Assembly: GCA_041658125.1 (NCBI GenBank)
Contig: JBBAAS010000001.1
Coordinates: 15,917 to 79,916, forward strand
DNA from: Candidatus Shapirobacteria bacterium
GTDB lineage: Bacteria > Patescibacteriota > Microgenomatia > UBA12405
Reading direction: 5' to 3'
DNA length: 64,000 nt
A program made the position numbers and the translations under genes. Every line of letters starts with the position of its first letter. Position 1 is the stretch's first letter. The notes below the pieces were generated by a model. The model made no database searches. It was not told where the DNA came from and was given only the letters and a program-made list of their open reading frames with translations. Shown here one piece after another: positions 4,254-31,354 of this stretch.

Positions 4254-5661
4254 GGAGATAAAGTATTATAAATTTATCGGAACGAAAGATGGTAGGATAT
4301 TTTGAGATTAACTCGTTGGTATAACCATTGTAAGTGGTAGAGACATAATAAATGGGATAATTTTTGTAGAGAGAAAAGAATTTGGGAAAATCATATATTT
4401 CGATCGGGAAACCGGAACGGTTAGTCTGATAAAGAAAGGCGGTATCGCCATTGTAGGGAGCAACCACAAGAGAGTTTTTGGGAATTAACTGGTCAACCAT
4501 TTTTCCGGCTTCCATAATAACCGGGTTATTGATTTTGTAATATTCCTGAACTTGGAACCAAGAGTAAAAAAGAGCGGCGGCAAAGACAGAAAAAGTAACC
4601 AAAAGAGCGATTAGTTTTTGATCGAAAACAAACTGATAGAGGTAATAAAGGCCAAAACCGATAATTAAAGATAAAAGAGGGGTAATTAAAAATTGATAAT
4701 AGTCATGTTGAATGTTGCCACGGGCAATGATGGAAAAATAAAGAAGAATGCCGGCAGAGGCTAATAGACAAAAAAGTTGGGAGTGATTTTTTTTGTAGGC
4801 AAAGCCAAGAAGTAAGGGAATAACGCCATAAATTCCAAGAATTAATTTGCCGATCCGTTCGAAAAATAACCAACGAAACCAGGCCGGACGAAAACGAAGG
4901 CCACCTTCGTTAAACAGCCAATTGCTGGCGGGGATGCCTTCGGGAAATTGACTAATCCATTGGCGCCAGAGGTAAAAGGGTAAAAGCGAAATCAGGGCGA
5001 AAAAAAAGAGGGAGAGGAGAGTTTTGGGCTTAAAAAGGTTAAGCCGAAGAGAGTAGAAAAAAAGTAAAGGGAAAATAATTATGCCGGTAAAAGGCTTAGT
5101 AAGAATGGCGAGGGCTAAAGAAATGCCGGATAGTAGCCGGGATTTGGGAAAAAGGTACAGAGTAAGCATCATAAAAAGAACAGCGGTGGGTTCGGGAAGA
5201 ATGGTTCGGGAATAATAGATTGAAAATGGCAGGAAAAGAAAAGTAGTGGTGGCTAAAAATGAGGGCCAAAAGTTTTTGGTGATTTGAAGTCCGATAAGAA
5301 AAATAAGAAAGCCAGTGATAAGAGAGAAAAAGATGGAAATTAGACGGGAAGCAACTTCGACGGTTAATGAGGGGAATAAAGGAGAAACGGCTTTATAGAA
5401 AACAACAGAAACGGCATTGTAAATGGGAAATTCGACGAAACGATAACCGTGGGGATTGTCCTTGCCTGATTGAAGATTACTTAGGTCGTGGTAGGTGGGA
5501 CGGAGAAGATCAAAGCTTCTTAGAAAATTTCTGGTGACCGAAGCAGTGTCGGCTTGACGAAAGGAATGCCAATCAGCGATAGGGTTGTTGATTTTATAAA
5601 GCCGGACAGTAAGACCAGTGGCAAAAACAAGAATTAAGAGTATTTTTTTGATGACGGTCAT
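4234..5661 (-). CDS. GT-C fold membrane glycosyltransferase, PMT_2/ArnT-like (GT39/GT83-like)
   Basis: 475 aa, >10 predicted TM helices. First loop motif ADWHSFRQADTASVTRNF is typical of ArnT/PMT-like GT-C proteins. C-terminal soluble domain present. Confidence 0.65.
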   Translation of the reverse strand: MTVIKKILLILVFATGLTVRLYKINNPIADWHSFRQADTASVTRNFLRSFDLLRPTYHDLSNLQSGKDNPHGYRFVEFPIYNAVSVVFYKAVSPLFPSLTVEVASRLISIFFSLITGFLIFLIGLQITKNFWPSFLATTTFLFLPFSIYYSRTILPEPTAVLFMMLTLYLFPKSRLLSGISLALAILTKPFTGIIIFPLLFFYSLRLNLFKPKTLLSLFFFALISLLPFYLWRQWISQFPEGIPASNWLFNEGGLRFRPAWFRWLFFERIGKLILGIYGVIPLLLGFAYKKNHSQLFCLLASAGILLYFSIIARGNIQHDYYQFLITPLLSLIIGFGLYYLYQFVFDQKLIALLVTFSVFAAALFYSWFQVQEYYKINNPVIMEAGKMVDQLIPKNSLVVAPYNGDTAFLYQTNRSGFPIEIYDFPKFFSLYKNYPIYYVSTTYNGYTNELISKYPTIFRSDKFIILYLHEPNQN

Positions 5662-7082
5662 TTTCGTTTTTGGTTGAGAGCAATGGTTTGATAGTAAATG
5701 CCCATCATAATCCAGAAAAGATAAGCAGTTTTTGAAGCTTCAAAAACGTCAATAAAGACGGCATTGGTTAAAGTAACTAAGAGTCCGCCAAAGAGGGTTA
5801 TCTGGATAATATCCAGAAACCCCAGTTTTTTCCGGAAAACTAAGGGGATGGTTTTTCGGATAAAGTAGAAAATGATAGAAAAGAAAGTAATAAAGCCAAG
5901 AAGACCACTTTCGCCTAAGGTACGGAGATAGTCGTTATCGGTAGCCAAAGTGATTGAACCAAGACCGGAGCCAATGAGGGGGTTTCTTTTGAAAGCAGTA
6001 ACAGCTCGGGGCCATTCAGCATTGAAGCGGATTTCACCAGATCGGGCGACTCCGACGTCAGCGTCAACGGGAGGAAATTCTTCGATGGTTTTGTAGACCA
6101 TGACGGTGGGGACGAAAGTTGCTCCCGGTTTGGGTTTAATAGGTGAGCCGGTGATGACGGCAATTGGCGGAAGAGTAGAAATGGGAGTAATGGTAGGGAT
6201 AACAGTTGGCTTAGCCGGAAACTTGAGAAAAGCCAGACTCTTTTGAAGACCGGGAACGGTGGCCAGAAGCCGTTGATTGAGATCCTTTGACATAAAAAGA
6301 GAGACAATCATGACTATGGAAACCGGAAGAATCCAAAGATATTTCTTAACTAAGAAAAGAGTAAGAACCATGCCGCCCCAGAAAGCGAAAGTAGAAATTC
6401 GCGAGGCGGTGAGGGTTAAAATGTAAAAGGCTAATAACCAAAAGAGAAGGTTGATGGTTTTGAGAAAAAAGTTTTTTTGAATAATGGCGACAACGCCAAT
6501 GATAATCAAGACAGCGCTTAAAAAAGCAGCCAAATCGTAATGGCCGGCGAAGCTGGAACTGATGCGGGTCCAGTCACTCATTATTAAAAGTTGGCCCTTA
6601 GCAAATTCGGAATTCATGGTGGAAACTATCGGCCAGCCTAAAAATTTTTGGCCAAGACCATAGAGGGAAACTAGAATGGTGGCGATGATGGCGGTGATGT
6701 AAGTAATTTTTAAATCAGCAAGATTTTTAATGGTATCAGCGGCAATAAAAAATAGTGACATATATTCAAATCGGCGCAAAAGATTAAGAAGAAGGAATTT
6801 TGGAGCAGTGGTTTGGTAGATTAGGATGGCAACTAAGGTACTGGCAGAAATAGCGAAAAAATAGGCTAAAAACAATTTAGTAATTTTATGTTTAAAAATC
6901 GGAAAACCGTGAGTTAACTGATAAATGCCGTAAACGATGATGGAAAATAAAACCAGATAATCATCAACCCTGACGGAAACAAAAGTTCCGGCTACCGATG
7001 ATAAAGGAAATTTGGGATAGAGAGGAATGCCGATGATGAGAGCTAAAAGGATTGGCCTTAAAATTTTGAAATTTTTGAACAT
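5658..7082 (-). CDS. O-antigen ligase/polymerase-like (Wzy_C family) membrane protein with a Pro/Thr-rich insertion
   Basis: 474 aa polytopic. LTLTASRISTFAFWGGM and RSGEIRFNAEWPRAVTAFKRNPLIGSGLGS resemble the Wzy_C signature. A low-complexity PTVIPTITPISTLPPIAVITGSPIKPKPGATFVPT segment falls in the large periplasmic loop. Confidence 0.6.
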   Translation of the reverse strand: MFKNFKILRPILLALIIGIPLYPKFPLSSVAGTFVSVRVDDYLVLFSIIVYGIYQLTHGFPIFKHKITKLFLAYFFAISASTLVAILIYQTTAPKFLLLNLLRRFEYMSLFFIAADTIKNLADLKITYITAIIATILVSLYGLGQKFLGWPIVSTMNSEFAKGQLLIMSDWTRISSSFAGHYDLAAFLSAVLIIIGVVAIIQKNFFLKTINLLFWLLAFYILTLTASRISTFAFWGGMVLTLFLVKKYLWILPVSIVMIVSLFMSKDLNQRLLATVPGLQKSLAFLKFPAKPTVIPTITPISTLPPIAVITGSPIKPKPGATFVPTVMVYKTIEEFPPVDADVGVARSGEIRFNAEWPRAVTAFKRNPLIGSGLGSITLATDNDYLRTLGESGLLGFITFFSIIFYFIRKTIPLVFRKKLGFLDIIQITLFGGLLVTLTNAVFIDVFEASKTAYLFWIMMGIYYQTIALNQKRK

Positions 7083-14804: not shown

Positions 14805-15886
14805 GGCTCTTACTGGCATTGTCGGTAGTTGCAGTTCATAGCCAGTCGATATTGGGGATAAATTTGGTGGGAGGGCAGACGGCAGTTCAGGTGTTTTATA
14901 TGATTTCCGGCTTTTATATGGCTTTAGTATTGATGGAAAAATATGGATTTAGCAAAGGGTCCTACAAATTGTTTTTAGGGAACAGATTTTTAAAATTATA
15001 TCCGATTTATTGGATCAATTTATTGATAGTTTTATTGATTTCGATTGGCGGATTGGTAATAGTGAAAAATGGTTACCACTTCACTTGGTATATCGAGTAT
15101 GTCAGTAAAATGAAATTGGGAACCCTGCTTTTTTTTGTGGTTACCAATTTGGTAATTTTTGGGCAGGATTTGGTGATGTTTTTGCAATTGGATAAACTTG
15201 GCAACTTAATACCGGCGGTAAATTTTCGGCTGACCGATCCCCCACTATATCGATTTTTGTTTGTCGAACAGGCGTGGACAATTGCTTTGGAAATGACGTT
15301 TTATCTGTTAGCGCCATTTTTAGTTAAGCAAAAGACGAAGTGGCTAATGCTTTTGATCGGTTTAAGTTTTGGTTTGAGAATAATTTTGTATAAAATTGGA
15401 TTTAATAATGATCCGTGGAAGTATCGGTTCTTTCCATTGGAATTGGGAATGTTTTTGGTGGGAGTAATGGGGTACCGGATTTATGGGCGATTAAAAAACA
15501 GAACAATACCCGAGTGGTTTTTGAGAGTGGTTTATGGGGTGGTAATATTGGCGACTTTTATTTATCCGCTAATCCAAAGAGACGGGTCAAAAATGTGGGG
15601 GTATTATTTATTGGTAGTTATTTCTTTACCGTTTATTTTCAGGTTATTTAAAAATAATAAAATAGACCGATTTATCGGAGAGTTGTCATATCCGGTGTAT
15701 TTGTGCCATTTTTGGGTGGCGTTTGTGATTATGGATTTGATAAAAATTAGAAATTGGAGCACCGGAATTTTAGTGGCTTTGGGATCAATCGGAGTGTCAC
15801 TTTTGATAGTTAAACTGGTAGTTGAACCGATAGATAAAATCAGGCAAAAACGAGTGGCGGGATCAGGGAATGGTTTTGCGAATTAG
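14768..15886 (+). CDS. Acyltransferase_3 family membrane O-acyltransferase (OafA/WecH-like)
   Basis: 372 aa polytopic. LRLLLALSVVAVHSQ ... FYMISGFYM. The start may be the internal MGILR (~14792). Overlaps the galE 3' end. Confidence 0.65.
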   Translation: MVYESSTGMGILRLLLALSVVAVHSQSILGINLVGGQTAVQVFYMISGFYMALVLMEKYGFSKGSYKLFLGNRFLKLYPIYWINLLIVLLISIGGLVIVKNGYHFTWYIEYVSKMKLGTLLFFVVTNLVIFGQDLVMFLQLDKLGNLIPAVNFRLTDPPLYRFLFVEQAWTIALEMTFYLLAPFLVKQKTKWLMLLIGLSFGLRIILYKIGFNNDPWKYRFFPLELGMFLVGVMGYRIYGRLKNRTIPEWFLRVVYGVVILATFIYPLIQRDGSKMWGYYLLVVISLPFIFRLFKNNKIDRFIGELSYPVYLCHFWVAFVIMDLIKIRNWSTGILVALGSIGVSLLIVKLVVEPIDKIRQKRVAGSGNGFAN

Positions 15887-17278
15887 AACCAGATAAAAAT
15901 TGTTCTGACAGGGAAAGGTTCTGACGGTTTGATGCGAGCCCAAAAGACTTAATTCATAGTAGTTGGTATTTTGATCAAAGGTACTTTGGTCAACGACAAC
16001 GGTCATGTACTCCGCTTGGCCATTTTGAGTTTCGATATCTTTAATATTACAACCGGCTTTTTTGAGGAGAAAACGATGTTCGGGTCCGTTATGAAACGGG
16101 TGGAGGCTTGATTGAACGGAGACGAAAGTTGGTTCCTTAAATGAGTCGCAGTAGTTTCTGAAACATTGTTCCATTTGGGTGGTAGTGCGGGAGGCGGTCG
16201 TAAAATATTGCTTTAGCCTGGTTGGTTGTAGATAATTTAAACTAAAAAATACAAGGCTTAGAACGGTAACAAGAGGCCGAAGACCGGCAATAATCACGAA
16301 AAGTAGTGAGGTAAAGGCGAAAATATAATGGGCTTGAATAGTGATTGGGGTAACAAAGGCCAGTATGGTGATACCTAAATACAGAAAAGAGGCGACGAAT
16401 TGTAAATTTTTCCTTTTTTGTCTATTTTTATAGAGTAAAAAAAGACAGAGTAAAATGCTGGCGATAAAGAGGGAAATATTCAGTGTTTGATTGGAGAAAG
16501 AGAAAACGTATTGTGACAGATTATTCAGACGATCGACGAAAGCCAAGTCTTTTTGAGGAGGTGAGTTTTTGGTCAAGAGAGCGGTGGTAAGAAAAAAGCG
16601 ATGACGAAGTTCAAAAAAAATCGTTGGTAGATTAATTAAGGCCAGAGCGCCAAAGAGTGATAAGGCTATCGCTTTAAAATTGGAACGAGAAAATAAAAGC
16701 CAATATAAGGCAAAAATAATTAGAAGTGGGGCGACGGAATAAGAAATGGAGATGGCGGTGGCAATACCGGCAGAAAAAAGGATAGTTTTTGGGATCGAGA
16801 ATTTTTTTAATAAAAGATAAAAAGAAATAATGGAGATAATCAAGAATGGGGTGACAAATGATGGATTCCAAACGTAACGACCTTGAATAATGTATTGGGG
16901 ATGAATGGAGATGAAGAAAAAAGCGATCAATAAAACCTTGGTTAAAGGCTTATCTTTTCTTAGTAAATAAAGACCTAAGAGAAAAGAAAAAAGATAGATA
17001 AAAGCGAGAGTATAAACCAAAGAAATCGGGTTACCTTTAGAAAGGAGAAAGCCGGGGTAAAGTAGATAAAAATAAATAGCAGATTGGTTAAAGGGGAGAG
17101 CGCTAGTTTGGGGGCCGAGGAGTGGTGGTTTGCCTGTTTCTTGCCAAGTTTGTAGTACCATCATGTCCCGACCCATATCGTTGAAAAAGAAAAAAGAGTC
17201 GTTAATATTGTAGAAGCGGAGGAAAAGGAACAAAAATATTACGCCGATAATCGGTAATAAACGAAGGATTTTAGACAT
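15863..17278 (-). CDS. Polytopic membrane protein with C-terminal soluble domain, possible GT-C-like glycosyltransferase
   Basis: 471 aa. ~10 TM helices followed by a ~110-aa hydrophilic, Cys-containing C-terminal domain. The start codon shares one nucleotide with the stop of the AbiEii gene (TAATG). Confidence 0.4.
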   Translation of the reverse strand: MSKILRLLPIIGVIFLFLFLRFYNINDSFFFFNDMGRDMMVLQTWQETGKPPLLGPQTSALPFNQSAIYFYLLYPGFLLSKGNPISLVYTLAFIYLFSFLLGLYLLRKDKPLTKVLLIAFFFISIHPQYIIQGRYVWNPSFVTPFLIISIISFYLLLKKFSIPKTILFSAGIATAISISYSVAPLLIIFALYWLLFSRSNFKAIALSLFGALALINLPTIFFELRHRFFLTTALLTKNSPPQKDLAFVDRLNNLSQYVFSFSNQTLNISLFIASILLCLFLLYKNRQKRKNLQFVASFLYLGITILAFVTPITIQAHYIFAFTSLLFVIIAGLRPLVTVLSLVFFSLNYLQPTRLKQYFTTASRTTTQMEQCFRNYCDSFKEPTFVSVQSSLHPFHNGPEHRFLLKKAGCNIKDIETQNGQAEYMTVVVDQSTFDQNTNYYELSLLGSHQTVRTFPCQNNFYLVLIRKTIP

Positions 17279-18012
17279 TAGGTTAGCCTGGCAATTTCAT
17301 TATCTAAAAACATAAGAGTTTCCTCTTTTAGGGTTTTTCTGATTTTGTTATAAGTTTCAAACGGTAAAAGAGTATTTAAGTCCTGATCAATTAGGGTTTG
17401 AGTAATTTTTTCGTTTATAAAATGACGAAGGTAAACAAGATATCTTTTAACCGATAGTCCGGTTCTTTCAATTATTACGGCTTCACTGTATTTCAAATTT
17501 TTTAGAAAGAAGTAATGAATATCGTAGATATCCCGGCCGGCAATCGATTCTCTACGATCATACCGATCTTTGACGGCTACCATTTTGTTGGCAAAAATGC
17601 TTTTCTGGTCTTGACAGTTGACGGTACGGTTAATTTCCGGCAAAAATACCGGAGAATATCGGTTGGATTTGACGATAACATTAAGAGCGTCAATTTTTAA
17701 AGTGTTTCTTTGATTTGGGGAGTTAGGATATTTCAAAAAAAACTCTAAAGCTTTTTGGCTTTCCTGATATAAAATAAATCCAAGTTTGTCAAAAACTTTA
17801 TGAAACTCCGCTCTTAACTCTTTTTCATTTACCCCAGTCTTAAGGTCAAAATCAAGATCAACTGAAAACCGATCAAGAATGCCCATCATTGAGGCGCAGG
17901 TACCGCCCTTGAAATATAAAGAGTTTGATAAGGTAGAGTTATCGATGATTTCGGTTAGAGTGCGAAGTAGGTGAGCTTTATGAATGGTGTCGGTAGGTCT
18001 TAGGGTGATCAT
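17278..18012 (-). CDS. abiEii: AbiEii/DUF1814 nucleotidyltransferase toxin (type IV toxin-antitoxin)
   Basis: 244 aa. YFKGGTCASMMGILDRFSVDLDFD matches the AbiEii (DUF1814) GGTAL...RFSEDLDF core. Sits immediately downstream of, and overlapping (ATGA), an AbiEi-like gene. Confidence 0.65.
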   Translation of the reverse strand: MITLRPTDTIHKAHLLRTLTEIIDNSTLSNSLYFKGGTCASMMGILDRFSVDLDFDLKTGVNEKELRAEFHKVFDKLGFILYQESQKALEFFLKYPNSPNQRNTLKIDALNVIVKSNRYSPVFLPEINRTVNCQDQKSIFANKMVAVKDRYDRRESIAGRDIYDIHYFFLKNLKYSEAVIIERTGLSVKRYLVYLRHFINEKITQTLIDQDLNTLLPFETYNKIRKTLKEETLMFLDNEIARLT

Positions 18013-18551
18013 AAATAGCCAAGTTGTTGTTGATAATTCTTAACTAAAGTCCAGTCAATAACATTGTCGGCGTCAAAATGATAATTTTTTTGAAAATATA
18101 ACATATCGGCAATTGCCCGCTCGGTATTGGCCAAGAAAACACCTCTGTCGTTTTGAGTTATGCCAAGAGAATTGTTTAAACATTGAGGTTTTAACTGTCT
18201 GACTAAATAGGCATGGTCGTTAATGTTAAAGTTGGCGGGAGTACTGGAAATAAAAGTTATTTTTGCAGGCGATTGGTTAATAATCCCCTCTTTTGCTAAA
18301 ACCGATTCGGTACTTAAATAGCTAAAGTGATTTATGGCCCTAAAGCCTATTTCTACCGGATCCAGTTGACTTAACGGAATGGTGCTATAGAGTCCCTTTT
18401 GAACACTGATCAGTATCTCTTTTTTGATCAGTCGAGCAATGGTTTTATAGAGTGTGTTTTGATTCGAAATATTCCAGAGAACTTTTAAGTCTGAAGTGTG
18501 GAATAATTTTTGTGGTTGTTGGATTAATATACCGATTTTGTCTACAGTCAT
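18009..18551 (-). CDS. abiEi: AbiEi-family antitoxin/transcriptional regulator
   Basis: 180 aa. LISVQKGLYS ... SYLSTESVLAKEGII resembles the AbiEi N-terminal domain (rGvY ... sYiSleSAL). 4-bp overlap with the toxin gene. Confidence 0.6.
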   Translation of the reverse strand: MTVDKIGILIQQPQKLFHTSDLKVLWNISNQNTLYKTIARLIKKEILISVQKGLYSTIPLSQLDPVEIGFRAINHFSYLSTESVLAKEGIINQSPAKITFISSTPANFNINDHAYLVRQLKPQCLNNSLGITQNDRGVFLANTERAIADMLYFQKNYHFDADNVIDWTLVKNYQQQLGYL

Positions 18552-18590
18552 AGTTGTGTTATCTGGTACTAATATGTACAGGATAACATA

Positions 18591-18627
18591 ACTATTATGC
18601 TTGTCAAGAGGTCTTTCTATTATGCTT
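18591..18627. promoter_or_regulatory. Candidate operator: two copies of CTATTATGCTTG (direct repeat, 25-bp spacing) in the divergent abiEi / dehydrogenase promoter region
   Basis: Exact 12-mer at 18591-18602 and 18616-18627, directly upstream of the minus-strand abiEi start (18551). AbiEi antitoxins are known to autoregulate by binding paired repeats. Confidence 0.3.
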
Positions 18628-18703
18628 GAAATAGAAGAGAGTTGTTAACGCGGTAGAAACGAAGGAAAAGGGAAAGCAAACTAATGATAGAATTTGGAGA
18701 TTT

Positions 18704-19984
18704 ATGATAATTTTGAAAAAGGTAGCAGTAATTGGATTAGGATATGTAGGATTGCCGACGTTGGTGGCTATTCATAAAACCGGTAAATACCAAGTAGTGG
18801 GTTTTGATATTGATAAAAAAAAGATAAAGAATATGAAAAATGGGATATCCCCGATTGAAGATGAGAATGTTGTTAAGGCGATAAGGAAAAAATCTCTTTT
18901 GGTTACAGATGATGAAAACGATTTGCGTGATAGCGATGTTTTCTTAATATGTGTGCCGACGCCGGTTTTTTCAGACTATTCCCCTGATTACGGTCCGGTG
19001 GAATCAGCGACAAAAGTTTGTGCGAAATACTTAAAGAAAGGTTGTCACTTTGTTTTGGAATCAACGGTAAATCCGGGGACTTGTGAAGAGATAGTAAAGC
19101 CAATTTTAGAGAGTGTAAGTGGTTTGACGGCGGGGAAAGATTTTAATGTTGCCCATTGTCCCGAAAGAATAAATCCCGGCGACAAAAAGTGGAATATATA
19201 TAACATTAACCGAAACATAGGGTCTATTAATAGCGAATGGAATGGAATTATCGCTGATTTTTATAGAAGTTTTGTCACTGATGCCAAAATTAACGAAGTG
19301 AGTTGTTTGAAAGTAGCAGAGTCGACAAAAATTGTGGAAAATACTTTTAGGGATATTAACATTGCTTATGTTAATGAATTGGCACAATCGTTTGACGCGA
19401 TGGACATTGATTTGCATGAGACTTTAATGGCGGCCTCAAACAAACCCTTTGCTTTTATGGTTCATTGGCCGGGTTGTGGAGTCGGTGGACATTGTATTGC
19501 GGTGGATCCTTATTACTTGATAAAGAGGGCGGGGTTAGCCGGTTTTAATCATCGGTTTTTAAAGATTGCTCGGGAGATTAATAATAGTATGCCGGAGTAT
19601 GCGGTGAACAAATTGATGCTGGGATTAAATGAAATGGGATTATCGGTTAAGGGAACAAAAATTACTCTTTTGGGATTAAGTTATAAGGCAAACGTTGGTG
19701 ACTTAAGGGAAAGTCCGGCGTTGGAAATTGAAAAATGTTTACGGAAGCTTGGGGCCGATTTAATTGTTTATGATCCGTATGTCGATAATGGGATAAAAAA
19801 TTTAAGAGAAGCAATAAAAGATTCAAAAGCAATCGTATTGGCAACTGCACACAAAATATTTGTTGAAGAGTTGTTGGATAAATTAAAAAATAGTAAGGTA
19901 AGATTAATTATTGATGGAAGAAACTGTTTAGACAGCGGTAAAATTAAAAAATTAAAAATAATTTATAAAGGAATTGGAAGATGA
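18704..19984 (+). CDS. Nucleotide-sugar dehydrogenase (UDP-glucose/GDP-mannose dehydrogenase family; WecC/WbpA/Ugd-like)
   Basis: 426 aa. VAVIGLGYVGLPTLVAI NAD-binding motif, ICVPTP, catalytic-Cys region GCGVGGHCIAVDPYYL. Confidence 0.85.
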   Translation: MIILKKVAVIGLGYVGLPTLVAIHKTGKYQVVGFDIDKKKIKNMKNGISPIEDENVVKAIRKKSLLVTDDENDLRDSDVFLICVPTPVFSDYSPDYGPVESATKVCAKYLKKGCHFVLESTVNPGTCEEIVKPILESVSGLTAGKDFNVAHCPERINPGDKKWNIYNINRNIGSINSEWNGIIADFYRSFVTDAKINEVSCLKVAESTKIVENTFRDINIAYVNELAQSFDAMDIDLHETLMAASNKPFAFMVHWPGCGVGGHCIAVDPYYLIKRAGLAGFNHRFLKIAREINNSMPEYAVNKLMLGLNEMGLSVKGTKITLLGLSYKANVGDLRESPALEIEKCLRKLGADLIVYDPYVDNGIKNLREAIKDSKAIVLATAHKIFVEELLDKLKNSKVRLIIDGRNCLDSGKIKKLKIIYKGIGR

Positions 19985-20025
19985 AAAAATTAGTGGTTAT
20001 GATTCCGGCTTATAACGAGCGATGA
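19981..20025 (+). pseudogene. Truncated N-terminus of a DPM1-like GT2 gene (14 codons then stop)
   Basis: atgaaaaaattagtggttatgattccggcttataacgagcgaTGA encodes MKKLVVMIPAYNER*. The ATG overlaps the dehydrogenase stop (ATGA). The motif matches the N-terminus of the intact GT2 at 26059 (LILIPAYNEE). It is cut off 10 bp before a convergent low-GC gene. Confidence 0.55.
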
Positions 20026-20034
20026 CGAGTAGCA

Positions 20035-21306
20035 TCAATAGCTTTTACTAACTATAAAAACATAATTAGTTGTAGCTGAACCGCCAATATTTAACATCAT
20101 GGAATTATTGGTATTTTTGACTTGGTAACTACCTGCAGTATTTGTAATTTGTTTATGTAAATCTAGCAACATTCTGACTCCGGTAGCTCCGACTGGATGG
20201 CCACATCCGATTAGTCCTCCGCTAGGATTAATTGGATTTTTACCATTAAATTTAATTGAGCCGTTTTCAACGGCCTCATACTCCTTGCCGGGTTTGGTTA
20301 TACCAAAAGCAGAGATAGCGGCATATTCGCTGGAAGTGAAACAATCATGAGTCTCATATAAATCAATGTCATTTTCTTTAAGGTTGGACCGTTTTAGAGC
20401 ATCCAAGACAGTTTGTCTTGTCCAGGGTAATACAAAAGCTTGATCTTGTGATTCTTTTATTTTTTCGGAAAATTGGACAGGGGCAACCCGATGTCCCCAA
20501 CCGATTATTTCAGAAAAATTTTTATTGGTTAAGTTTCTTTTGGTTTTGTAATTTTGTAAATATTTTTTAGAGGATAAAATTACAACTGCAGCGCCATCAG
20601 TAACTTGAGAACAGTCGGCAACGGCAAGTTTACCGCCGACCAACATATTATTTTTAGTATTGCGATTATTGGCATGTTCTTTATTCATGAACCAACTTCT
20701 TGTTTGAGCATTTGGATTATTTTTAGCATTACTGTAATTAATTGCTGAAATCTCGGCTAAACAATCCAAATATTTTTTTTCATCTAAGGAATATTTTTTT
20801 ATGTAAATATCAGCTAATTGACCAAAAAGTTTTGGAAAGGGAAAAGAAATACCTTTAGCCTCTTTATCGTAGTAAGCGGCGGTTCCTAAATAATCTCCAC
20901 AGAGGGCTGAATTGACAGTTTTCATTAATTCAATACCCAAAACTATAGCGACATCGTAATCCCCTGCCCTTATCTTTGAAGAAGCGGAATCGATGGCGAC
21001 TGAACCAGAGGCACAAGCGGCTTCATATCTGGCACTGGGGATGCCATAAAAAGAAGGATTAATTTCGGTAAAAAAAGCACCTAAATGGCCTTGGTTGAAG
21101 TATTGTTCACCATCGAAGTTACCAACAAAGAGACCAATTTTATTTTGTTTATTGAGGGAGAAAATTTCTTTATAGTCCAAGTTGGTATTTAGAAGAGTAT
21201 CTTCAACCACTTCCCGCATCATTGCTAAAAAAGTTTTGCCTTCTTTAACCCAATTTCTTTGAAAGTCTGTTTGAGAACCACCAATTATATAGACGGGGTT
21301 TTTCAT
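20035..21306 (-). CDS. Thiolase (acetyl-CoA C-acetyltransferase, SCP-x/archaeal-type thiolase superfamily)
   Basis: 423 aa. Nucleophile-Cys region [17 protein letters not shown]-terminal [17 protein letters not shown]. Confidence 0.75.
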
Positions 21307-21307
21307 A

Positions 21308-22603
21308 TTAGTTTGCTTTTATATAATTGCGAAAATCTAATTCGTTTTGTAGAGTATAAAATTTTGTTTTTTCAGAGTGTTGTGCGATTTCTTCTGGAAC
21401 TGATAGTTTATATTGTTTAATTAATTTAATTGCTTCTTTTTTGCCGCCTATTAGGTCAATTAAAGCACATGGCGGCAACCAGTTAAATCCATAAGCCATT
21501 ACCCTATCAAGATCCTCTTTATTTTTTACAACCGGTCTTATTAAAGATAGGGAATAACTAATATATCGGGCGAAAAAATATTTAATAATTTCTGATTCAA
21601 AAGTTTTAGTTTTTAACAGTAGTTCAAAAGCTTTGTTGTATTCTCCATTTGAGATTTTTTCTTTAACTTGATCGATAAATTCAATATTAAATTTTGGAAT
21701 TGGTTCATATATTTTTTTATTGATATTAAAAACTAATCTTTGATCACCTTCTTTTTTATAAAAACCTTGCCCACATTTATCACCTAAAGAATTATTTGAA
21801 ATTAAATATTCAACAAATTCAGGCATTTTATATGATTCATGGGCATAGTCGTTGGTTAGATTATAAATATTATTTACGATTGCTTTATGAACATCGAGGC
21901 CGACAAGATCAATGGTAGCGATTGGCGGTAAGCTTCGACCGGTAAACCCCCCTAATAATTTGTCCATAAGAGCAATTCCTCCTTCTTTTTGGTATTTTTG
22001 GGCAAACTGAAGGGTTTCATTAAGTAGCTGGAATCCGATTCTATTGCCAGCAAATCCTGGAGTGTCGTTAACAATAACAACTTTACGGTGTAAAGTTGTT
22101 TGTAAATAATCGAATAGTTCTTTTTGAATTTCGGGATCAGAATTCGGCCCGGCAATTAATTCACAAAGGATCATTTTGTATGGTGGGTTATAGAAATGGG
22201 TGCCGAAATAATGTCTTTGTTGGGTGGGAGTGAAACATTTTGATAATTCGGTAATGGAAAGACCGGAAGAAACGGTAGAGATAATGGTATTGTTTTTGGT
22301 TAATAAAGATATCTTGTGGTTTATTTGTTTTTTGAGTTCTAGATCTTCGGACGTAAGTTCGAAAACCCAATCACTTTCAGACAGACATTCTTTTAGATCA
22401 TCGTAAGTTTTAGGAATAAGTTGATCTTTAATAACATCAGATTTGATGGAGTCAACGGCGATATCAATTCCCTCTTGAGCTTTTTCTAAAGAACGGGCGA
22501 TCATAAATATTTTGGCATTGCCGAAACCAGCGATAATACCAGCGCAATGAGAGCCCATAGCACCGTTGGCGCCGAGAATAGTGACGGTTTTAATCAGAAT
22601 CAT
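21308..22603 (-). CDS. 3-hydroxyacyl-CoA dehydrogenase (NAD-binding 3HCDH family)
   Basis: 431 aa. [23 protein letters not shown]-terminal Rossmann fold and a 3HCDH-like middle region. Immediately upstream of the thiolase with a 1-bp gap. Confidence 0.7.
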
Positions 22604-24584: not shown

Positions 24585-26057
24585 ATGAAAGTGCTTTTAG
24601 TTACACCCCCATTTTATAGAATTCTGGGGATTTACAATCGGTATTTTCCATTAGGAATTACTCAATTGGGTACTGTTTTAAAAGATAAAGGATATAAAGT
24701 AGCAGTTTATGATGCTGATTATTATTCTGATCCGGACACGATTGATTATTCGCGTATCTCAGATAAGTTTCCCACTTATTTAAAATCTTTTAAAGAAAAG
24801 AACCAAATTTGGAGTGAAGTAATTGAAAACATAAAAAAATGGAAACCAGACGTAGTCGGAATATCCGCTTATACCACTTTTGCTGCTTCGGCTTTTCATT
24901 TAGCAAAATTAGTAAAGGAAAATATTGAAAACTGCAAGGTGATAATGGGTGGACCACATGCGACTGTCAGAGCTGAGGAAATTTTAGAAATTTGTCCTGA
25001 GGTAGATTATGTGGTCAGGGGTGAGGCAGAAGAGACAATGATTGAACTAATGAACCATGTTACTGGAAGGAAAAATGACGTAGAGAGTATTTCGGGAGTG
25101 TCTTTTAGAAAAGGGAAAAAGATTGTCTCGAATGGAGACAGATTGCAACCTAAAAATCTAGATAATTACCCTATGTTGAATAGATCTTTATTGATGAATA
25201 AAAATAAGTTATCATCGGAAGATATGGGTTTAATTATGACTAGCAGAGGTTGTCCGTATAGGTGTACATATTGTGCTTCAACAAAAGGAATTAGATATCG
25301 ATCGATAGGTAGTGTTATGGAGGAAGTCGAGGCTGTTTTTGAGAAATATGGGACGAGACAATTTACTTTTAAAGACGACTCTTTTACTGTAGACAGAAGC
25401 CGAGTGGTTGATTTGTGTAACCGTTTAATACAATGGAAGGTTAAAATAAATTGGGAATGTAACACGAGAGTTAATTTGGTAGATGAAGAACTACTGCGCT
25501 TGATGAAGAAGGCTGGGTGTAATTTTGTTAAAGTGGGAGTCGAGACTGGATCAGCTAGGGTACTTAAAATGATGAATAAGGGAATTAGTTTGGATCAGGT
25601 AAGGTCAGCATCAAAATTGTTTAGAAAGGTTGGATTACACTGGACTGGGTATTTTATGATGGGAGTGGTGGGGGAAACAGAGAAGGATATTCAGAAAACT
25701 GTGGATTTTATGCACGAAATAAAGCCAAACTTGGGTGTTATCGCGGTTTACGAGGCTTTTCCGGGAACTGTAATGTTTGAGGAAGGTTTAAAAAAAAGGT
25801 TGTATAGAGAAAATATGAGCTTGGAAGATTTTTATTCCATGGCTCCAGATAGTTATTATAAGGTTGATCCGAGAGTACAAAATGAAAAAATAACCCCGAA
25901 GAGATTTGAAATTATAAAAAAAGAAGTTAATAAAGAATTTCATCAACAAAACATGATGGTAGGAAATGTGATGGCGATGGCCAGGTCTAAAATAAGAGTT
26001 TATTACAGGGATCCAAAGATATTTTTTGATGATGTAAAAAAGATGTTAAGCTATTGA
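24585..26057 (+). CDS. Cobalamin-binding (class B) radical SAM enzyme
   Basis: 490 aa. N-terminal B12-binding-like Rossmann domain (KVLLVTPPFYRI ... GYKVAVYDAD), radical SAM cluster motif SRGCPYRCTYCAS (CX3CX2C). Confidence 0.8.
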   Translation: MKVLLVTPPFYRILGIYNRYFPLGITQLGTVLKDKGYKVAVYDADYYSDPDTIDYSRISDKFPTYLKSFKEKNQIWSEVIENIKKWKPDVVGISAYTTFAASAFHLAKLVKENIENCKVIMGGPHATVRAEEILEICPEVDYVVRGEAEETMIELMNHVTGRKNDVESISGVSFRKGKKIVSNGDRLQPKNLDNYPMLNRSLLMNKNKLSSEDMGLIMTSRGCPYRCTYCASTKGIRYRSIGSVMEEVEAVFEKYGTRQFTFKDDSFTVDRSRVVDLCNRLIQWKVKINWECNTRVNLVDEELLRLMKKAGCNFVKVGVETGSARVLKMMNKGISLDQVRSASKLFRKVGLHWTGYFMMGVVGETEKDIQKTVDFMHEIKPNLGVIAVYEAFPGTVMFEEGLKKRLYRENMSLEDFYSMAPDSYYKVDPRVQNEKITPKRFEIIKKEVNKEFHQQNMMVGNVMAMARSKIRVYYRDPKIFFDDVKKMLSY

Positions 26058-27191: not shown

Positions 27192-28637
27192 ATGGATAAT
27201 AAAAATAATAATAGAGTTTATTTACTTTATCCTCCTATTTCAAAGAAAGAAAGATACTCGTCGGATTTGGGTAGTGCGGGAGGAGAACAAATTCCCTTGG
27301 GAATTTTTTGTTTGGCTGCTTATTTAAGAGAAAAAGGGTATGAAATGGCGGTTACTGATGGAGAGTCTGAAAAATTAACGACAAAACAAATAACAAGACA
27401 AATTAAAAAATTTGATCCATTTGTAGTTGGAATAAGTTCGACTACGGTTGCTTTTCACAGGGCGTTGGAAATGGCGAAATTAATAAAGAAAAAGTTTCCT
27501 AAAGTAATAATTTTAATTGGGGGTCCTCACGTAACATCAAATTATAAGGATGCTTTATCATTTGGTGTATTTGATTATGGTGTTTTAAGGGAAGGTGAAA
27601 TCACAACAGTTGAATTGTTAAAGACCATAAAGGGCAAGGGTAAAATTGAAGAAGTAAAAGGAATAGCTTATAAAAAAGATGGAAAAGTTATTGTTAATGA
27701 ACCCAGAGAGTACATTAAAAACTTAGATGAATTGCCGTTTCCCGCATATGATTTGATTGAGGATATAAATTTATATACACCTGATTTGTCAAATTATATG
27801 TCAACGCCGGTGGTTAATATTATGACAAGTCGCGGTTGTCCGAATCAGTGTACTTTTTGTGATAGAGCTGTATTTGGTCAGTTTTATAGAGAAATGTCGG
27901 CAGAAAGAGTAGTAGAATTAATAAAATATTTAGTGGAAAGATATAAAGTTCGAGAGATCGATTTTGTTGATGATACTTTCTTGATTAATAAATTACGATT
28001 TAAAAAAATCTTTCGATTACTAAAGGAAGAAGGAATTAAATTTTACTGGACATGTACAAGTAGAGTTAACGTTGTCGATTACGAGATTTTGAAATTGGCT
28101 AAAGAAACCGGTTGTTGGCACATTGCTTTTGGAATTGAGTCGGGTGACGAGGGTATTTTGAAACTGATTAAAAAGAATATTACTATGGAACAAGTGAGAA
28201 AGGCGTTGGGATGGTGTAAAGAACTTGGGATTAAGAGTAAGGGTTACTTTATTGTAGGCCATCCAGGCGATACTTTGGAAACAATAAATAAAACAATTAA
28301 ATTGGCTTATAACTTGCCTTTAGATGATATATTAGTAACCATAAATACGCCAATTCCGGGGTCACCCCAATATTATTTTATTAAGGAATATGGGGATTTT
28401 GATGAGTCTGATTGGTCTAAATTCAATTGTTGGAGGCCGGTGTTTATTCCTAAGGGATTAACGAAAGAAATACTTTTGAAAAAACAAAGGGAAATGTATC
28501 GAAAGTTTTATGTAAGGCCAAGAATTATATGGCGATATTTAAGGGGTACCTTGGGTCGAGGTGGGATGAAGAGGTTAAAATCATTAATGGGAGCGGCTAA
28601 ATATCTGATGTCTAAACCGAACCTGGAGGGTTTATAA
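27192..28637 (+). CDS. Cobalamin-binding (class B) radical SAM enzyme
   Basis: 481 aa. B12-binding-like N-domain (GYEMAVTDGE ... VVGISSTT ... ILIGGPH), cluster motif SRGCPNQCTFCD. Confidence 0.8.
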   Translation: MDNKNNNRVYLLYPPISKKERYSSDLGSAGGEQIPLGIFCLAAYLREKGYEMAVTDGESEKLTTKQITRQIKKFDPFVVGISSTTVAFHRALEMAKLIKKKFPKVIILIGGPHVTSNYKDALSFGVFDYGVLREGEITTVELLKTIKGKGKIEEVKGIAYKKDGKVIVNEPREYIKNLDELPFPAYDLIEDINLYTPDLSNYMSTPVVNIMTSRGCPNQCTFCDRAVFGQFYREMSAERVVELIKYLVERYKVREIDFVDDTFLINKLRFKKIFRLLKEEGIKFYWTCTSRVNVVDYEILKLAKETGCWHIAFGIESGDEGILKLIKKNITMEQVRKALGWCKELGIKSKGYFIVGHPGDTLETINKTIKLAYNLPLDDILVTINTPIPGSPQYYFIKEYGDFDESDWSKFNCWRPVFIPKGLTKEILLKKQREMYRKFYVRPRIIWRYLRGTLGRGGMKRLKSLMGAAKYLMSKPNLEGL

Positions 28638-28649
28638 CCGTAAGTTTAT

Positions 28650-30554
28650 ATGAATTTAGGTATTTATTTAGTTCCAATTGTATTTTTTTTGAAGCTTGGT
28701 TTAGTTGCGTTGGTATTTAGCCTTCCTTTAATTATTGATAGATTAAAGAAAAATCTTTCCGTAGACTTAATCTTAGTTTATTTATTTGGTCAAGCAAATT
28801 TAATATTATCGATTTTTATATACAATAGTATTAATTATTTTTGGGATATCAGAAAAATAAGCATTGTTGTTTTTTCTATTGTAGTTTTGGTTGTGGAGTC
28901 AATACTTGTGTTTATTCTTAATAAGAAAGAGTATCTTGCCGAGAAAAAAAGGTTTGTTTTTGGAGATAATTGGAAGTGGTTTATCATCATTTTTATGATA
29001 GTTACAATTTTTTATGGATGGATAAATTCTTTATATTTTGACCGGCAAGAGAATAAAATATTTAATCCAGGGTATGGGATAAACCATGATTATATTGTTG
29101 TTTTGGGAACGTCAAAGGCGTTTTTTAAATATACTAAGGATAGTAGCCTTTTGATAAGGGATTTGTATTATCATTGTTATGAAGCGGGTTATCCGTGTGG
29201 CGGAACACATATAAGTGCTTATTTCTCAGATTTATTTAAAACAGATGTTTACCTTGTTTACCAACGGATTCTAACTTGGTTGTCTGTGTCGACAATATTT
29301 GTGATTAATTATTTTCTTGTGAAATTTTTTCGGAAGGGAAATTTACTTTCCAATATAGTATTAATTTTGGTCTCAGTTGCCAGCGTATTTAATTTTTTGT
29401 CAATGAGTTTCATAGATGCATCAGTTTTTGGTTCCACTGCAGTAATACCCTTTTTATTTTTATCCATATTTCTGACATTACAGTATATTAAAGAAAAGAA
29501 AAATATATACCTATTGCTAATTTTTATAGTTTTGGTAGACATGGTTTATATTTATACCTATTTTGGTGGTATTTATTATTTATTATTTTTGGCGACGGCT
29601 CTCATAATTTATCGGAGAAAATTTTGGGAAGGCTGGAAAATGGTGAAAATAATTGCTTTACTTTTAATAGCATTTATTTTACCTCTAAATCTGCTTCCAG
29701 CAATAAAATTTTTAACAAAACAAGTTGAGTCTCCAGTGAAGGAGGTAAGCTTGTTTAAAGGGATGAATGGTAATATGGCCGGTTTTAATAATCCGATGAC
29801 TGCTTTTTCAATATGGACATCAAACGCAGATTATAGGTTCTATGAAGCAAATTATTATAATACATGGTTGTTTTTTACATTAATGGCACCGATTATCTTT
29901 TTTTTGTTGGTCTCAGAAAAAGATAAAATTATGCTTAATAAAGAAATATTAGTGATCGCATTACCTTTTGCGATAATGATTGGAGTTGGTTTTTGGATAA
30001 CCAAGTCTTCTTATCAAAGTGGGAAGGCTTTACATTGGTGGTCTGATATCTGGCCTTTAATTTTTTATTTATTGCTTTATAAATCACTTTTAGATAAAAG
30101 GATTGTAATAAGATTATTAGTATTTTCATACTGTTTGATATTTTTTTACTACTCTTTTAAGAGTGCTGTTTTTGCTAGTTCATATTTTGGTAAACCGATT
30201 GTGAAGAGTAATTATGAACTTATGAATTTGGAGCCTGAATTATGTAAAGATGACAGTAAACTTTTATTTTTAGGTAGAGATGAGATGTCTAAATATTTTT
30301 TAGATACCTGTAAAAACATAACTTTTTATTATGACAGGTTTGATAATAATGCCGCTTTCTGGGAGATTATAGCATTAAATAAACTTATTAGTTTGGATCA
30401 GAAATGTGAAAATAATAGTTTGAGTTTAACGAAGATTGATTATAGTAGTTATAATGAAGTGTTAGTTGATAAGTGTTTTAAATTTAATAATCCATCGTAT
30501 GTAATTGAAAAAGAATATGAAAACTACAACTTATGGAAACTTAAAAGCTTATGA
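28650..30554 (+). CDS. Large polytopic membrane protein, possible GT-C-type transferase (GtrC position)
   Basis: 634 aa. >12 predicted TM helices plus a C-terminal soluble domain. No family motif recognised by eye. Confidence 0.35.
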   Translation: MNLGIYLVPIVFFLKLGLVALVFSLPLIIDRLKKNLSVDLILVYLFGQANLILSIFIYNSINYFWDIRKISIVVFSIVVLVVESILVFILNKKEYLAEKKRFVFGDNWKWFIIIFMIVTIFYGWINSLYFDRQENKIFNPGYGINHDYIVVLGTSKAFFKYTKDSSLLIRDLYYHCYEAGYPCGGTHISAYFSDLFKTDVYLVYQRILTWLSVSTIFVINYFLVKFFRKGNLLSNIVLILVSVASVFNFLSMSFIDASVFGSTAVIPFLFLSIFLTLQYIKEKKNIYLLLIFIVLVDMVYIYTYFGGIYYLLFLATALIIYRRKFWEGWKMVKIIALLLIAFILPLNLLPAIKFLTKQVESPVKEVSLFKGMNGNMAGFNNPMTAFSIWTSNADYRFYEANYYNTWLFFTLMAPIIFFLLVSEKDKIMLNKEILVIALPFAIMIGVGFWITKSSYQSGKALHWWSDIWPLIFYLLLYKSLLDKRIVIRLLVFSYCLIFFYYSFKSAVFASSYFGKPIVKSNYELMNLEPELCKDDSKLLFLGRDEMSKYFLDTCKNITFYYDRFDNNAAFWEIIALNKLISLDQKCENNSLSLTKIDYSSYNEVLVDKCFKFNNPSYVIEKEYENYNLWKLKSL

Positions 30555-31354
30555 TTTCAATACCATTTCTTTCTAAGAAAGCCAGTATTCCTTTTCCCCC
30601 TTTGGGTATGAGGGAGCTAGTTGGACCAATCAATACCAGCGATTTTGATAACCCTGAAGGGAAATTAATCTACCCTTATTTTAAAGCGAAAGATTATAAA
30701 AAAGTTTTTGATTTTGGGTGTGGTTGCGGGCGGTTGGCTAGGCAATTACTTATGCAAGAGCCTGTTCCTAATAAATATACGGGAATTGATCTCCATCTAG
30801 GGATGATCAATTGGTGTATCACTAACTTGTCACCCTGTAATAAAAATTTTAAATTTATCCATTACGATGTTTATTATAAAGCCTTTAACCCTACCGGCTC
30901 ATCAAAATTGTTACCTTTTCCGGTTGAACACAATCAATATACTCTAGCTCTTGCGCACTCTGTTTTTACTCATCTGATTGAAAAGGAAGTCGACTTTTAT
31001 TTAACAGAAATTACTAATGTCTTATGTGACCATGGGGTCTTTTTTGCCAGTTGGTTTCTTTTTGAAAAAAAATATTTTCCGATGATGCAGGAATTTCAAA
31101 ATTCTCTTTATATTAACCTAGATGATCCTACTAACGCTGTTATTTATGACAAAAATTGGCTTTTAGATATCTATTCTAAACACGGTTTATCTATCGAGAT
31201 TATTAAACCTCCCGGTGCTCGAGGTTTCCAATGGGTTGTTGTTGCCCGTAAGATTAATAGAAAACACCAGACGATTTTCCCTCAAGACGATGCCCCTATC
31301 GGTATAGTCCGAGCGTCATTACTTAAAAAAGAACCCTACAAAATTGGTTTATAG
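30551..31354 (+). CDS. Class I SAM-dependent methyltransferase
   Basis: 267 aa. Motif I VFDFGCGCGRLARQLL. 4-bp overlap with the upstream gene. Confidence 0.7.
   Translation: MISIPFLSKKASIPFPPLGMRELVGPINTSDFDNPEGKLIYPYFKAKDYKKVFDFGCGCGRLARQLLMQEPVPNKYTGIDLHLGMINWCITNLSPCNKNFKFIHYDVYYKAFNPTGSSKLLPFPVEHNQYTLALAHSVFTHLIEKEVDFYLTEITNVLCDHGVFFASWFLFEKKYFPMMQEFQNSLYINLDDPTNAVIYDKNWLLDIYSKHGLSIEIIKPPGARGFQWVVVARKINRKHQTIFPQDDAPIGIVRASLLKKEPYKIGL

Follow-up and report, generated by a model that had tools for sequence, protein, structure and literature searches.

We analysed a window of 64,000 nt from a contig of Candidatus Shapirobacteria, to whose positions all coordinates below refer, and found that two overlapping genes on its minus strand, abiEi and abiEii, are a genuine and ordinary AbiE toxin-antitoxin (TA) pair of the abortive-infection type. 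With a probability of about 0.8, the pair is a self-contained cassette of ~1.33 kb that acts in the manner of Streptococcus agalactiae AbiE and the MenAT systems of Mycobacterium tuberculosis, and that landed in the 5' part of a membrane glycosyltransferase gene of the GT-C fold, with control over the transcription of a GT-C gene as a probable by-product. The two genes are the following.

18009..18551, minus strand: abiEi antitoxin (PADLOC AbiEi match; fold match to 6y8q and 1zel)
17278..18012, minus strand: abiEii, DUF1814 nucleotidyltransferase toxin (Pfam PF08843, PADLOC AbiEii and motifs)

The open reading frame (ORF) of abiEi encodes 180 aa and that of abiEii encodes 244 aa, and they share a 4-nt ATGA overlap at 18009-18012. 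In the TAATG at 17276-17280, the stop codon of abiEii and the ATG of a 471-aa ORF (15863..17278, minus strand), the GT-C gene, share one base. An earlier description of this DNA, the sequence-only reading, had reported the ORFs, both junctions and two peptides quoted from the proteins, and all of them were present.

The AbiEi and AbiEii proteins

The 244-aa protein was assigned, by profile and motif matches, to the AbiEii/DUF1814 nucleotidyltransferases, with every catalytic motif intact. It matched Pfam PF08843 (E=4.8e-18; 66.4 bits, cut-off 22.5) as well as 21 PADLOC AbiEii models, of which PDLC02324 was the best (E=6.2e-23) and covered nearly the full length. The AbiEii call of the sequence-only reading therefore held: the PF08843 match was above the cut-off and the nucleotidyltransferase residues were conserved. 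We aligned 34 homologues (53-98% identity) and found G36, G37, R48, S50, D52, D54, D56, K143, R150, R160, D161 and D164 to be invariant. Motif I (hGG) is K35-G36-G37; motif II (DhD) is D52-L-D54(-F-D56), with R48 before it; motif III (K-x6-R) is K143...R150, which has the same 7-residue spacing as K173...R180 of S. agalactiae; and motif IV (+DxxD) is R160-D161-I-Y-D164. Searches of the PDB with the AbiEii family profile reached 4o8s/4ok0 (E about 1e-8) and 6y56 (E 0.007), the latter of which we take to be M. tuberculosis MenT4. The motif II stretch aligned with RFSEDLDFD of 4o8s and RFSTDLDFS of 6y56, and motif IV aligned with RDLFD and RDLYD of the PDB matches.

In S. agalactiae AbiEii, mutagenesis showed that G49, R63, D67, D69, K173, R180 and D192 are essential for toxicity (PMC3985639), and T65, which lies in the stretch R63-x-T65-x-D67-x-D69, is auto-phosphorylated upon antitoxin binding (bioRxiv 10.64898/2026.01.19.700257). 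The phospho-acceptor context R48-F-S50-V-D52 was invariant in the 34 homologues. Placed by motif position, S50 is the predicted positional equivalent of S. agalactiae T65 and MenT3 S78.

The 180-aa protein is an AbiEi antitoxin, as judged by PADLOC models and by the fold of its AlphaFold model, and the AbiEi-like call of the sequence-only reading was thereby borne out. Twenty-two PADLOC AbiEi models matched it, with PDLC02255 being the best (E=3.8e-25, residues 6-172). Foldseek analysis of the AlphaFold model (predicted local distance difference test, pLDDT, 95.2) placed 6y8q_A first (E 2.5e-6, prob 1.0, 187 columns of 180/195 residues) and 1zel (Rv2827c) second (E 4.6e-4, prob 1.0); all remaining matches had E > 0.02. 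The template modelling (TM) score of the model against the best structures was about 0.5, plausibly owing to a different domain orientation. PDB sequence searches with AbiEi, using either the single sequence or a profile, did not reach an AbiEi structure (6y8q), and precomputed PF13338 matches were found on AbiEi homologues at 71-75% identity. The ratio of non-synonymous to synonymous substitution rates (dN/dS), calculated against five relatives, was 0.04-0.09 for abiEii and 0.05-0.14 for abiEi; thus, both genes are under strong purifying selection (0.04-0.14).

Since AbiE profiles matched and the catalytic residues were retained, the AbiE assignment stands. The sequence-only reading had named the pair a type IV AbiE system; the family name agreed with the hidden Markov model, motif and fold evidence, and the type number is dated. 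S. agalactiae AbiE, first described as type IV, has been reclassified as type VII, in which the antitoxin induces auto-phosphorylation of the toxin (bioRxiv 10.64898/2026.01.19.700257).

The likeness to known systems extends to gene order. The AbiE systems of S. agalactiae and Lactococcus lactis are likewise bicistronic, with the antitoxin gene first and a 4-nt overlap (PMC3985639). The S. agalactiae toxin is also a DUF1814 protein, in which motifs I-IV are present and a Ser/Thr precedes the first catalytic Asp by two residues; in comparison, the window toxin is shorter and its motif I-II loop is 2 residues shorter. S. agalactiae AbiEi (195 aa, against 180 aa here) has the same fold, a winged helix-turn-helix (wHTH) followed by a C-terminal domain, and its structure 6y8q is the best PDB match, although its identity to the window AbiEi is only about 17-21%. 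The M. tuberculosis MenAT systems (MenT1/3/4 with MenA, for example Rv2827c-Rv2826c) have the DUF1814 toxin in common with the window pair, whose toxin profile matched 6y56, and the fold of Rv2827c (1zel) matches that of the window AbiEi; S50 would correspond to MenT3 S78. MenA antitoxins, however, have about 290 aa, against 180 aa here. MenAT promoters are autoregulated via inverted repeats, to which the palindrome predicted in the window is similar; Rv2827c uses four inverted repeats with negative co-operativity, whereas the window contains a single palindrome. Among solved structures, the best sequence-profile match was Helicobacter pylori JHP933 (4o8s/4ok0), a plasticity-zone protein, whose RFSxDLDFD and RDxxDxH motifs align with the window toxin. 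The match to JHP933 was limited to residues 25-173, and we know of no characterised AbiEi partner of JHP933.

Extent, promoter and putative operator of the cassette

Our comparison drew on about 80 loci that encode toxin relatives and represent about 50 distinct contexts. An abiEi homologue was found directly upstream of the toxin gene wherever the contig extended far enough, and in most of the loci the antitoxin came first with the same 4-nt overlap. The downstream gene differed in identity, strand and distance (S16, PilM, acyltransferase, GIY-YIG, DegT aminotransferase, M23/LysM peptidase, Fic and TP methylase), and the upstream contexts included VirB4/TraG-like and M23 genes in locus L003 and rplA or an ABC transporter in L004 and L006. 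When cassettes from different surroundings were compared as DNA, their similarity extended from the -35 hexamer (18607) to the toxin stop codon (17278). Because the homology spans the -35 box to the stop codon, the unit is a promoter-to-stop cassette of ~1.33 kb (18607-17278). It is a mobile, self-contained two-gene unit without a conserved tie to the surrounding sugar locus, and its clade is widespread in Microgenomates bacteria of the Candidate Phyla Radiation (CPR).

We considered a common ancestral context for these cassettes and rejected it; the rplA...actin-like ATPase arrangement was limited to L004-L007 and the VirB4/M23 arrangement to L003 and L019. Reading of the printed flanks, where no dedicated repeat search was made, revealed no repeats flanking the cassette ends. 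No tRNA gene or Rfam family was found in the window, and thus it contains no tRNA integration site or known RNA element. A cassette of 85% identity in L003 (1-3748; GCA_028704635.1, JAQWFB010000004.1) and L019 follows genes for a VirB4/TraG-like ATPase (DUF87, AAA_10) and an M23 peptidase and precedes a small helix-turn-helix gene; this setting may represent a mobile element, conjugative or otherwise, of a Shapirobacteria genome.

The composition of the region did not set it apart. The sequence-only reading had noted a G+C dip to ~32%; the G+C content was indeed slightly low (35.5%, against a mean of 36.6 ± 3.3% over the window genes), but the figure was imprecise and the dip was not distinctive. 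The abiEi and abiEii genes had 35.6% and 35.7%, the intergenic stretch 33.6%, and the neighbouring genes 38.2% and 36.2%. A G+C anomaly as a sign of foreign origin was therefore rejected. The GC skew of the region was 0.12-0.13 versus 0.25 ± 0.10, that is, ~1.2 sd lower, and other genes deviated more.

The following features were identified upstream of abiEi.

18580..18607, minus strand: abiE promoter (promoter scan and family conservation)
18550..18595, no strand: putative AbiEi operator, an imperfect palindrome with 20-nt arms (inverted-repeat search, shuffles and family consensus)
18592..18603, no strand: direct repeat copy 2, CTATTATGCTTG, between the -35 and -10 boxes of the abiE promoter
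18617..18628, no strand: direct repeat copy 1, covering the last codons and stops (..FQA and two stop codons) of a relic of the GT-C gene 5' end; overlaps a second, weaker promoter-like site

The abiE promoter consists of a -35 box TTGACA (18607-18602), a 16-nt spacer ending in TGT and a -10 box TATCCT (18585-18580), and is of the extended -10 type. The promoter scan gave it 10/12 matches with the TG extension. A TTGAC -35 box was present in 46 of the 51 non-redundant upstream regions of homologous cassettes, which lie in different contexts.

An inverted repeat that the sequence-only reading had missed was located at 18550-18569 and 18576-18595. Its 20-nt arms are 85% complementary and separated by a 6-nt spacer, and its score was equalled in only 3 of 3000 shuffles. 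The palindrome covers the -10 box, which lies in the left arm, and the presumed transcription start, and it ends at the ATG of abiEi. Its core in the window is TTATCCTGTAC (18586-18576), ATATTA and GTACCAGATAA (18569-18559); outside the core, the complementarity that brings each arm to 20 nt is weaker. The family consensus is TTATCCTGTAC-N6-GTACAGGATAA, which is perfect in several loci and holds to about 40-50% AbiEi identity. In the L014/L022 and L004/L006 clades, a half-site change from GTAC to ATAC co-varies with a change in the wHTH helix from TLY[T/K]TI to TL[Y/R/H]QT[I/V]. This co-variation of operator and recognition helix, seen in two clades only, is suggestive, and the palindrome is likely the AbiEi operator, which we call putative.

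In S. agalactiae, two AbiEi monomers bind two 23-bp inverted repeats located 3 bp apart in the promoter of their own operon (PMC7319586). The inverted repeats overlap the promoter in both systems, with a geometry of 2 x 23 nt + 3 there versus 2 x 20 nt + 6 here. The window operator differs in covering the -10 box and the transcription start, and in many members of the clade also the start codon; its host is a CPR bacterium. In distant members (L029, L044, L045, L067, L072, L081, L090 and others), the ATG is central in the palindrome, ~8 nt past the -10 box (..TATCCTGTACATATATGTACAGGATAA..). In this layout, ATATATG TAC AGG ATA reads M-Y-R-I, and the right half-site encodes residues 2-5 (Y-R-I-N), which suggests that the mRNA is leaderless, or nearly so, and that half of the operator is coding sequence.

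A 12-bp direct repeat had been reported in the promoter region at 18591-18627. The repeat exists, as two exact 12-nt copies of CTATTATGCTTG at 18592-18603 and 18617-18628, but the coordinates were one base off and it is not conserved in other contexts. When the 164-nt region was shuffled 3000 times with its dinucleotides preserved, a repeat of this length appeared in only 6 shuffles, so that it is not due to local chance. The spacer varies in other cassettes, for instance CAAGTATTATAG in L003 and CAAGCACGGCCG in L015. In L014, a close relative of the window strain, the upstream copy is kept with one mismatch and the spacer copy is degenerate; the upstream copy is absent in other contexts. We rejected the repeat as an operator, an unlikely role for it, because it is confined to one lineage and one copy is the tail of the GT-C relic. 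It may reflect microhomology, or a short duplication, where the cassette was inserted.

A second sigma-70-like site was found at 18619-18648 on the minus strand (TTAACA, 18 nt, CATAAT; 10/12 matches). It lies inside the GT-C relic, overlaps repeat copy 1 and is partly conserved in L014 (CATAAG). This site could act as an auxiliary promoter ahead of the operator, or it could simply be a remnant.

Insertion history and the surrounding glycan locus

Two features of the GT-C gene bear on how the cassette reached its present position.

15863..17278, minus strand: GT-C fold membrane glycosyltransferase, 471 aa (AlphaFold model and fold search); outside the conserved cassette
18617..18680, minus strand: relic of the GT-C gene 5' end (..LLSLFLRFYRVNNSLLFQA and two stop codons), found by local alignment to the intact GT-C gene

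The 471-aa protein had no Pfam match. Its AlphaFold model (pLDDT 93.2) matched the folds of ArnT 5f15 (E 6e-6, TMq 0.65), ALG12, ALG9, PglB and Pmt4 in the PDB, so that it is predicted to be a membrane glycosyltransferase of the GT-C fold. N33-D34..R37-D38, the acidic motif of the first extracytoplasmic loop, is nearly invariant, and PF13231 or PF09594 was present in a few homologues. AbiEi and the GT-C protein have identical counterparts in WC596_01080 and WC596_01090, and by the names of its homologues the window belongs to Candidatus Shapirobacteria (CPR/Patescibacteria, Microgenomates).

The cassette precedes the GT-C gene only in the window strain (L001/L002) and in one close relative, L014, which has the same -1 junction with its stop/start overlap. 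AbiEii and AbiEi of L014 are 97.5% and 86% identical to those of the window, and the flanking thiolase, 3-hydroxyacyl-CoA dehydrogenase and acyltransferase are about 92% identical. GT-C homologues of 43-63% identity occurred in six species-representative genomes, none of which had an adjacent AbiE in the available sequence. This sequence comprised up to 10 kb in four of the genomes; upstream of the gene, it was limited to 547 bp in L008 and was lacking in L013. In L012, genes for GalE, LPG-synthase-TM, DUF192 and GT2 precede the GT-C gene, and in L009 a polysaccharide deacetylase gene does. Conserved synteny of AbiE and GT-C was therefore rejected, as it occurs in one lineage only and GT-C homologues elsewhere lack AbiE. 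A 470-aa gene beside AbiE in L004 was considered as a GT-C counterpart and discarded; it is unrelated to the 471-aa protein.

When the segment 18671->18626 was aligned with the intact GT-C gene, it matched the 5' end (about 17228->17181) with a score of 40, whereas shuffles scored 16.8 ± 2.8 and 0 of 2000 reached 40. In L014, the relic is still a complete 32-codon ORF (MTKINNLIVIFLVLLFLFLRFCRINNSLLFQA followed by a stop codon), and the intact GT-C gene begins MSKILRLLPIIGVIFLFLFLRFYNI... Because this GT-C 5' relic sits just upstream of the abiE promoter, we conclude that the cassette is a secondary insertion. The alignments show that, in an ancestor shared by the window strain and L014, it was inserted into a GT-C gene or took the place of most of it, leaving a 5' stub. 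The event may have been an insertion that duplicated the first ~30 codons, the replacement of one member of a tandem pair of paralogues, or arrival together with a new GT-C allele.

The site has also recombined in other ways. A segment carrying the UDP-glucose dehydrogenase (UGDH) gene (18681-20026; gene 18704-19984, plus strand) is absent from L014, which has 113 bp there (L014 5222-5334). In the window, the GT-C relic ORF has lost its first ~38 nt to this indel, which was either an insertion here or a deletion there. Within the GT-C gene, the core (about 16136-17054; L014 6959-7859) was unalignable as DNA, with 48-50% amino acid identity overall and saturated synonymous divergence (dS). The first 100-220 nt and the last ~270 nt of the gene aligned with L014, and the two strains are otherwise roughly 90% identical. 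This mosaic pattern resembles the replacement of an allele or cassette that encodes a surface-glycan enzyme. The dS values versus L014 were 0.14 for abiEii, 0.59 for abiEi and 0.46 for thiolase. The wHTH-coding half of abiEi (18370-18551) had 68-80% DNA identity to L014, while 17180-18365, containing the rest of abiEi, abiEii and the first ~100 nt of the GT-C gene, was 90-100% identical (L014 region 5468-6830). These values suggest a recombination breakpoint inside abiEi, matched by a different right arm of the L014 operator (GTAGAGGATAA). With its UGDH indel, swapped GT-C core and uneven dS, the cassette site is a recombination hot spot.

Window ORFs of >=120 aa, except 61668-62249 and 63398-63961, were scanned against Pfam (E <= 1e-3 to 1e-5). 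The 64 kb contain about 20 GT1/GT2/GT4 glycosyltransferases, several PMT/GT-C-like membrane proteins, a Wzy_C protein, an ABC-2 exporter pair, GalE, UGDH, acyl- and acetyltransferases, a polysaccharide deacetylase and many methyltransferases. The sequence-only reading had placed the pair in an operon within a glycan locus. It does lie inside a very large glycan locus, with no terminator predicted before the membrane protein gene, but the tie is not a property of the system, as shown by the varied contexts of the about 80 loci.

Several other features of this locus were observed. Radical S-adenosylmethionine (SAM) genes are located at 24585-26057, 27192-28637, 41498-43060, 43062-44522, 50253-51722 and 46370-47539, among SAM methyltransferases and glycosyltransferases. 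Four of them are B12-binding, a fifth of the same size (50253-51722) has a Radical_SAM domain match only, and one is of the SPASM type; the set hints at an unusual glycan modification, perhaps C-methylation. Genes for a thiolase-like protein and a 3-hydroxyacyl-CoA dehydrogenase (20035-22603) lie in the middle of the glycan locus and have low GC skew. They adjoin the cassette in L014 too, and in L009 a thiolase homologue adjoins the GT-C gene. Large ORFs (387-634 aa) without a Pfam match at the thresholds used occur at 28650-30554, 40334-41497, 55320-58428, 59994-61616 and 62221-63471; by analogy with the 471-aa protein, some of them may be further divergent GT-C or polymerase-type membrane proteins. 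The GC skew of the plus strand is strongly positive throughout the window (mean 0.25 per gene, maximum 0.43), regardless of gene strand, with near-zero exceptions at the thiolase gene 20035-21306 (0.00), 30551-31354 (-0.04) and 45540-46328 (0.02). The skew may be a strand-wide mutational or replication bias, and the near-zero patches may be recent imports.

Proposed mechanism, alternatives and meaning

On the model of S. agalactiae AbiE and MenAT, to which it is homologous, free AbiEii would add nucleotides to the 3' ends of tRNAs and thereby halt translation and growth. Nucleotidylation of tRNA 3' ends and translation arrest have been reported for AbiEii-type toxins (bioRxiv 10.64898/2026.01.19.700257, PMC7450476, PMC10435456). 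AbiEi would be translated first from the shared mRNA through the ATGA coupling, and its C-terminal domain would neutralise the toxin, most likely via induced auto-phosphorylation at S50. AbiEi would also repress the operon, with two winged-helix domains on TTATCCTGTAC-N6-GTACCAGATAA covering the -10 box and the start. Release of the toxin upon phage infection or cassette loss would lead to abortive infection, selfish addiction, or both. No terminator was predicted between abiEii and the GT-C gene. Because of the stop/start overlap, the lack of a terminator-like site and the divergent gene upstream, the GT-C gene is probably co-transcribed from the AbiEi-controlled promoter in this strain. The coupling of the GT-C gene to abiE is a by-product of the landing site, not a feature of the system.

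Several points weigh against this proposal. Toxicity, tRNA modification, phosphorylation, DNA binding and defence are all drawn from homology to characterised proteins of 12-21% identity. No Pfam AbiEi model matched the 180-aa sequence in the Pfam scan, and its match to NCBIfam TAA_AbiEi (E=7.8e-15, 55 bits) is far under the 150-bit equivalog cut-off. The antitoxicity loop of S. agalactiae AbiEi (D85-E86-I87) could not be mapped onto the window AbiEi; candidate loop residues are the invariant E82 in YLSTESVL, or G89/I91/Q93. The right arm of the operator has 2 mismatches in its 11-nt core in the window, and a weak promoter-like site at 18036-18008 could allow abiEii and the GT-C gene to be transcribed without operator control. 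In addition, E. coli carrying S. agalactiae AbiE was not protected against 32 coliphages (bioRxiv 10.64898/2026.01.19.700257), and a defence role is therefore not guaranteed even in the type system.

A tentative alternative, with which the coliphage result agrees, is that the pair is a purely selfish addiction module whose loss kills or arrests the cell, and which may incidentally stabilise the recombination-prone GT-C/UGDH segment. A minimal promoter-to-stop unit in many unrelated contexts is typical of selfish TA systems, AbiE is known to stabilise plasmids and integrative and conjugative elements (PMC3985639, PMC11062541), and the segment is mosaic relative to L014, as seen in the UGDH indel, the exchanged GT-C core and the dS values (abiEii, 0.14; abiEi, 0.59). 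On the other hand, L. lactis AbiE and the DUF1814 systems SanaTA and RlegTA do give phage resistance (cited in bioRxiv 10.64898/2026.01.19.700257, PMC3985639), and the high degree to which the clade is conserved in Microgenomates (dN/dS of 0.04-0.14) suggests that the host benefits. Addiction and defence are, moreover, not mutually exclusive.

Functional integration, in which AbiEi has been co-opted as a regulator of the GT-C gene so that loss of the antitoxin under stress or upon phage infection would free the toxin and de-repress an enzyme that modifies surface glycans, is unlikely; it comes near the suggestion of the sequence-only reading that phage defence is linked to receptor modification. 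The TAATG overlap is found in both strains with this layout, there is no terminator-like site between the genes and no promoter-like site in the last 700 nt of abiEii (minus strand), and, with UGDH divergent upstream, the abiE promoter is the only evident promoter of the GT-C gene. Three of the ten tightly linked co-directional downstream neighbours elsewhere are envelope-acting (Acyl_transf_3, DegT aminotransferase and M23/LysM peptidase); other downstream neighbours are unrelated (S16, PilM, GIY-YIG, Fic and TP methylase). However, among about 50 distinct contexts AbiE is associated with GT-C in one lineage only, GT-C homologues usually come after other glycan genes and lack AbiE, the relic shows that the juxtaposition arose through insertion, and the weak site at 18036-18008 offers an internal promoter.

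A broader version of this idea, which we regard as quite improbable, is that in this lineage the AbiEi-repressed promoter became the working promoter of a hypervariable GT-C gene and that, more generally, AbiE cassettes in CPR bacteria may favour recombining glycan-gene cassettes as landing sites and move along with them. If so, depletion of AbiEi by phage or stress would release a tRNA-modifying toxin and at the same time switch on a surface-glycan modification. The earlier ideas that the pair stabilises the glycan locus or links defence to a receptor-modifying locus lack comparative support and are speculation, conceivable for this one lineage. A decaying, non-functional TA remnant has a negligible chance, for although TA loci often decay in reduced genomes and the right arm of the operator is imperfect here, both ORFs are full length, the catalytic and family-invariant residues are all present, dN/dS is 0.04-0.14 and the promoter is intact.

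The self-contained cassette thus belongs to a known family. In metagenome-assembled genomes from groundwater, AbiE ranks among the top five defence families by prevalence, and it has been reported in CPR genomes (PMC12259885, PMC8080830), and close homologues in GenBank are already labelled AbiEii/AbiGii family toxins. The pair has little significance on its own for this reason, and the comparative points are modest and reusable. The mobile unit is defined precisely, from the -35 box to the stop codon, and a large CPR clade of AbiE gains an operator consensus, TTATCCTGTAC-N6-GTACAGGATAA, that co-varies with the recognition helix. The insertion scar is datable and illustrates how, at a recombination hot spot, a TA cassette can bring a surface-glycan gene under its own promoter; it also cautions against reading function into the adjacency of a TA pair and its neighbour.

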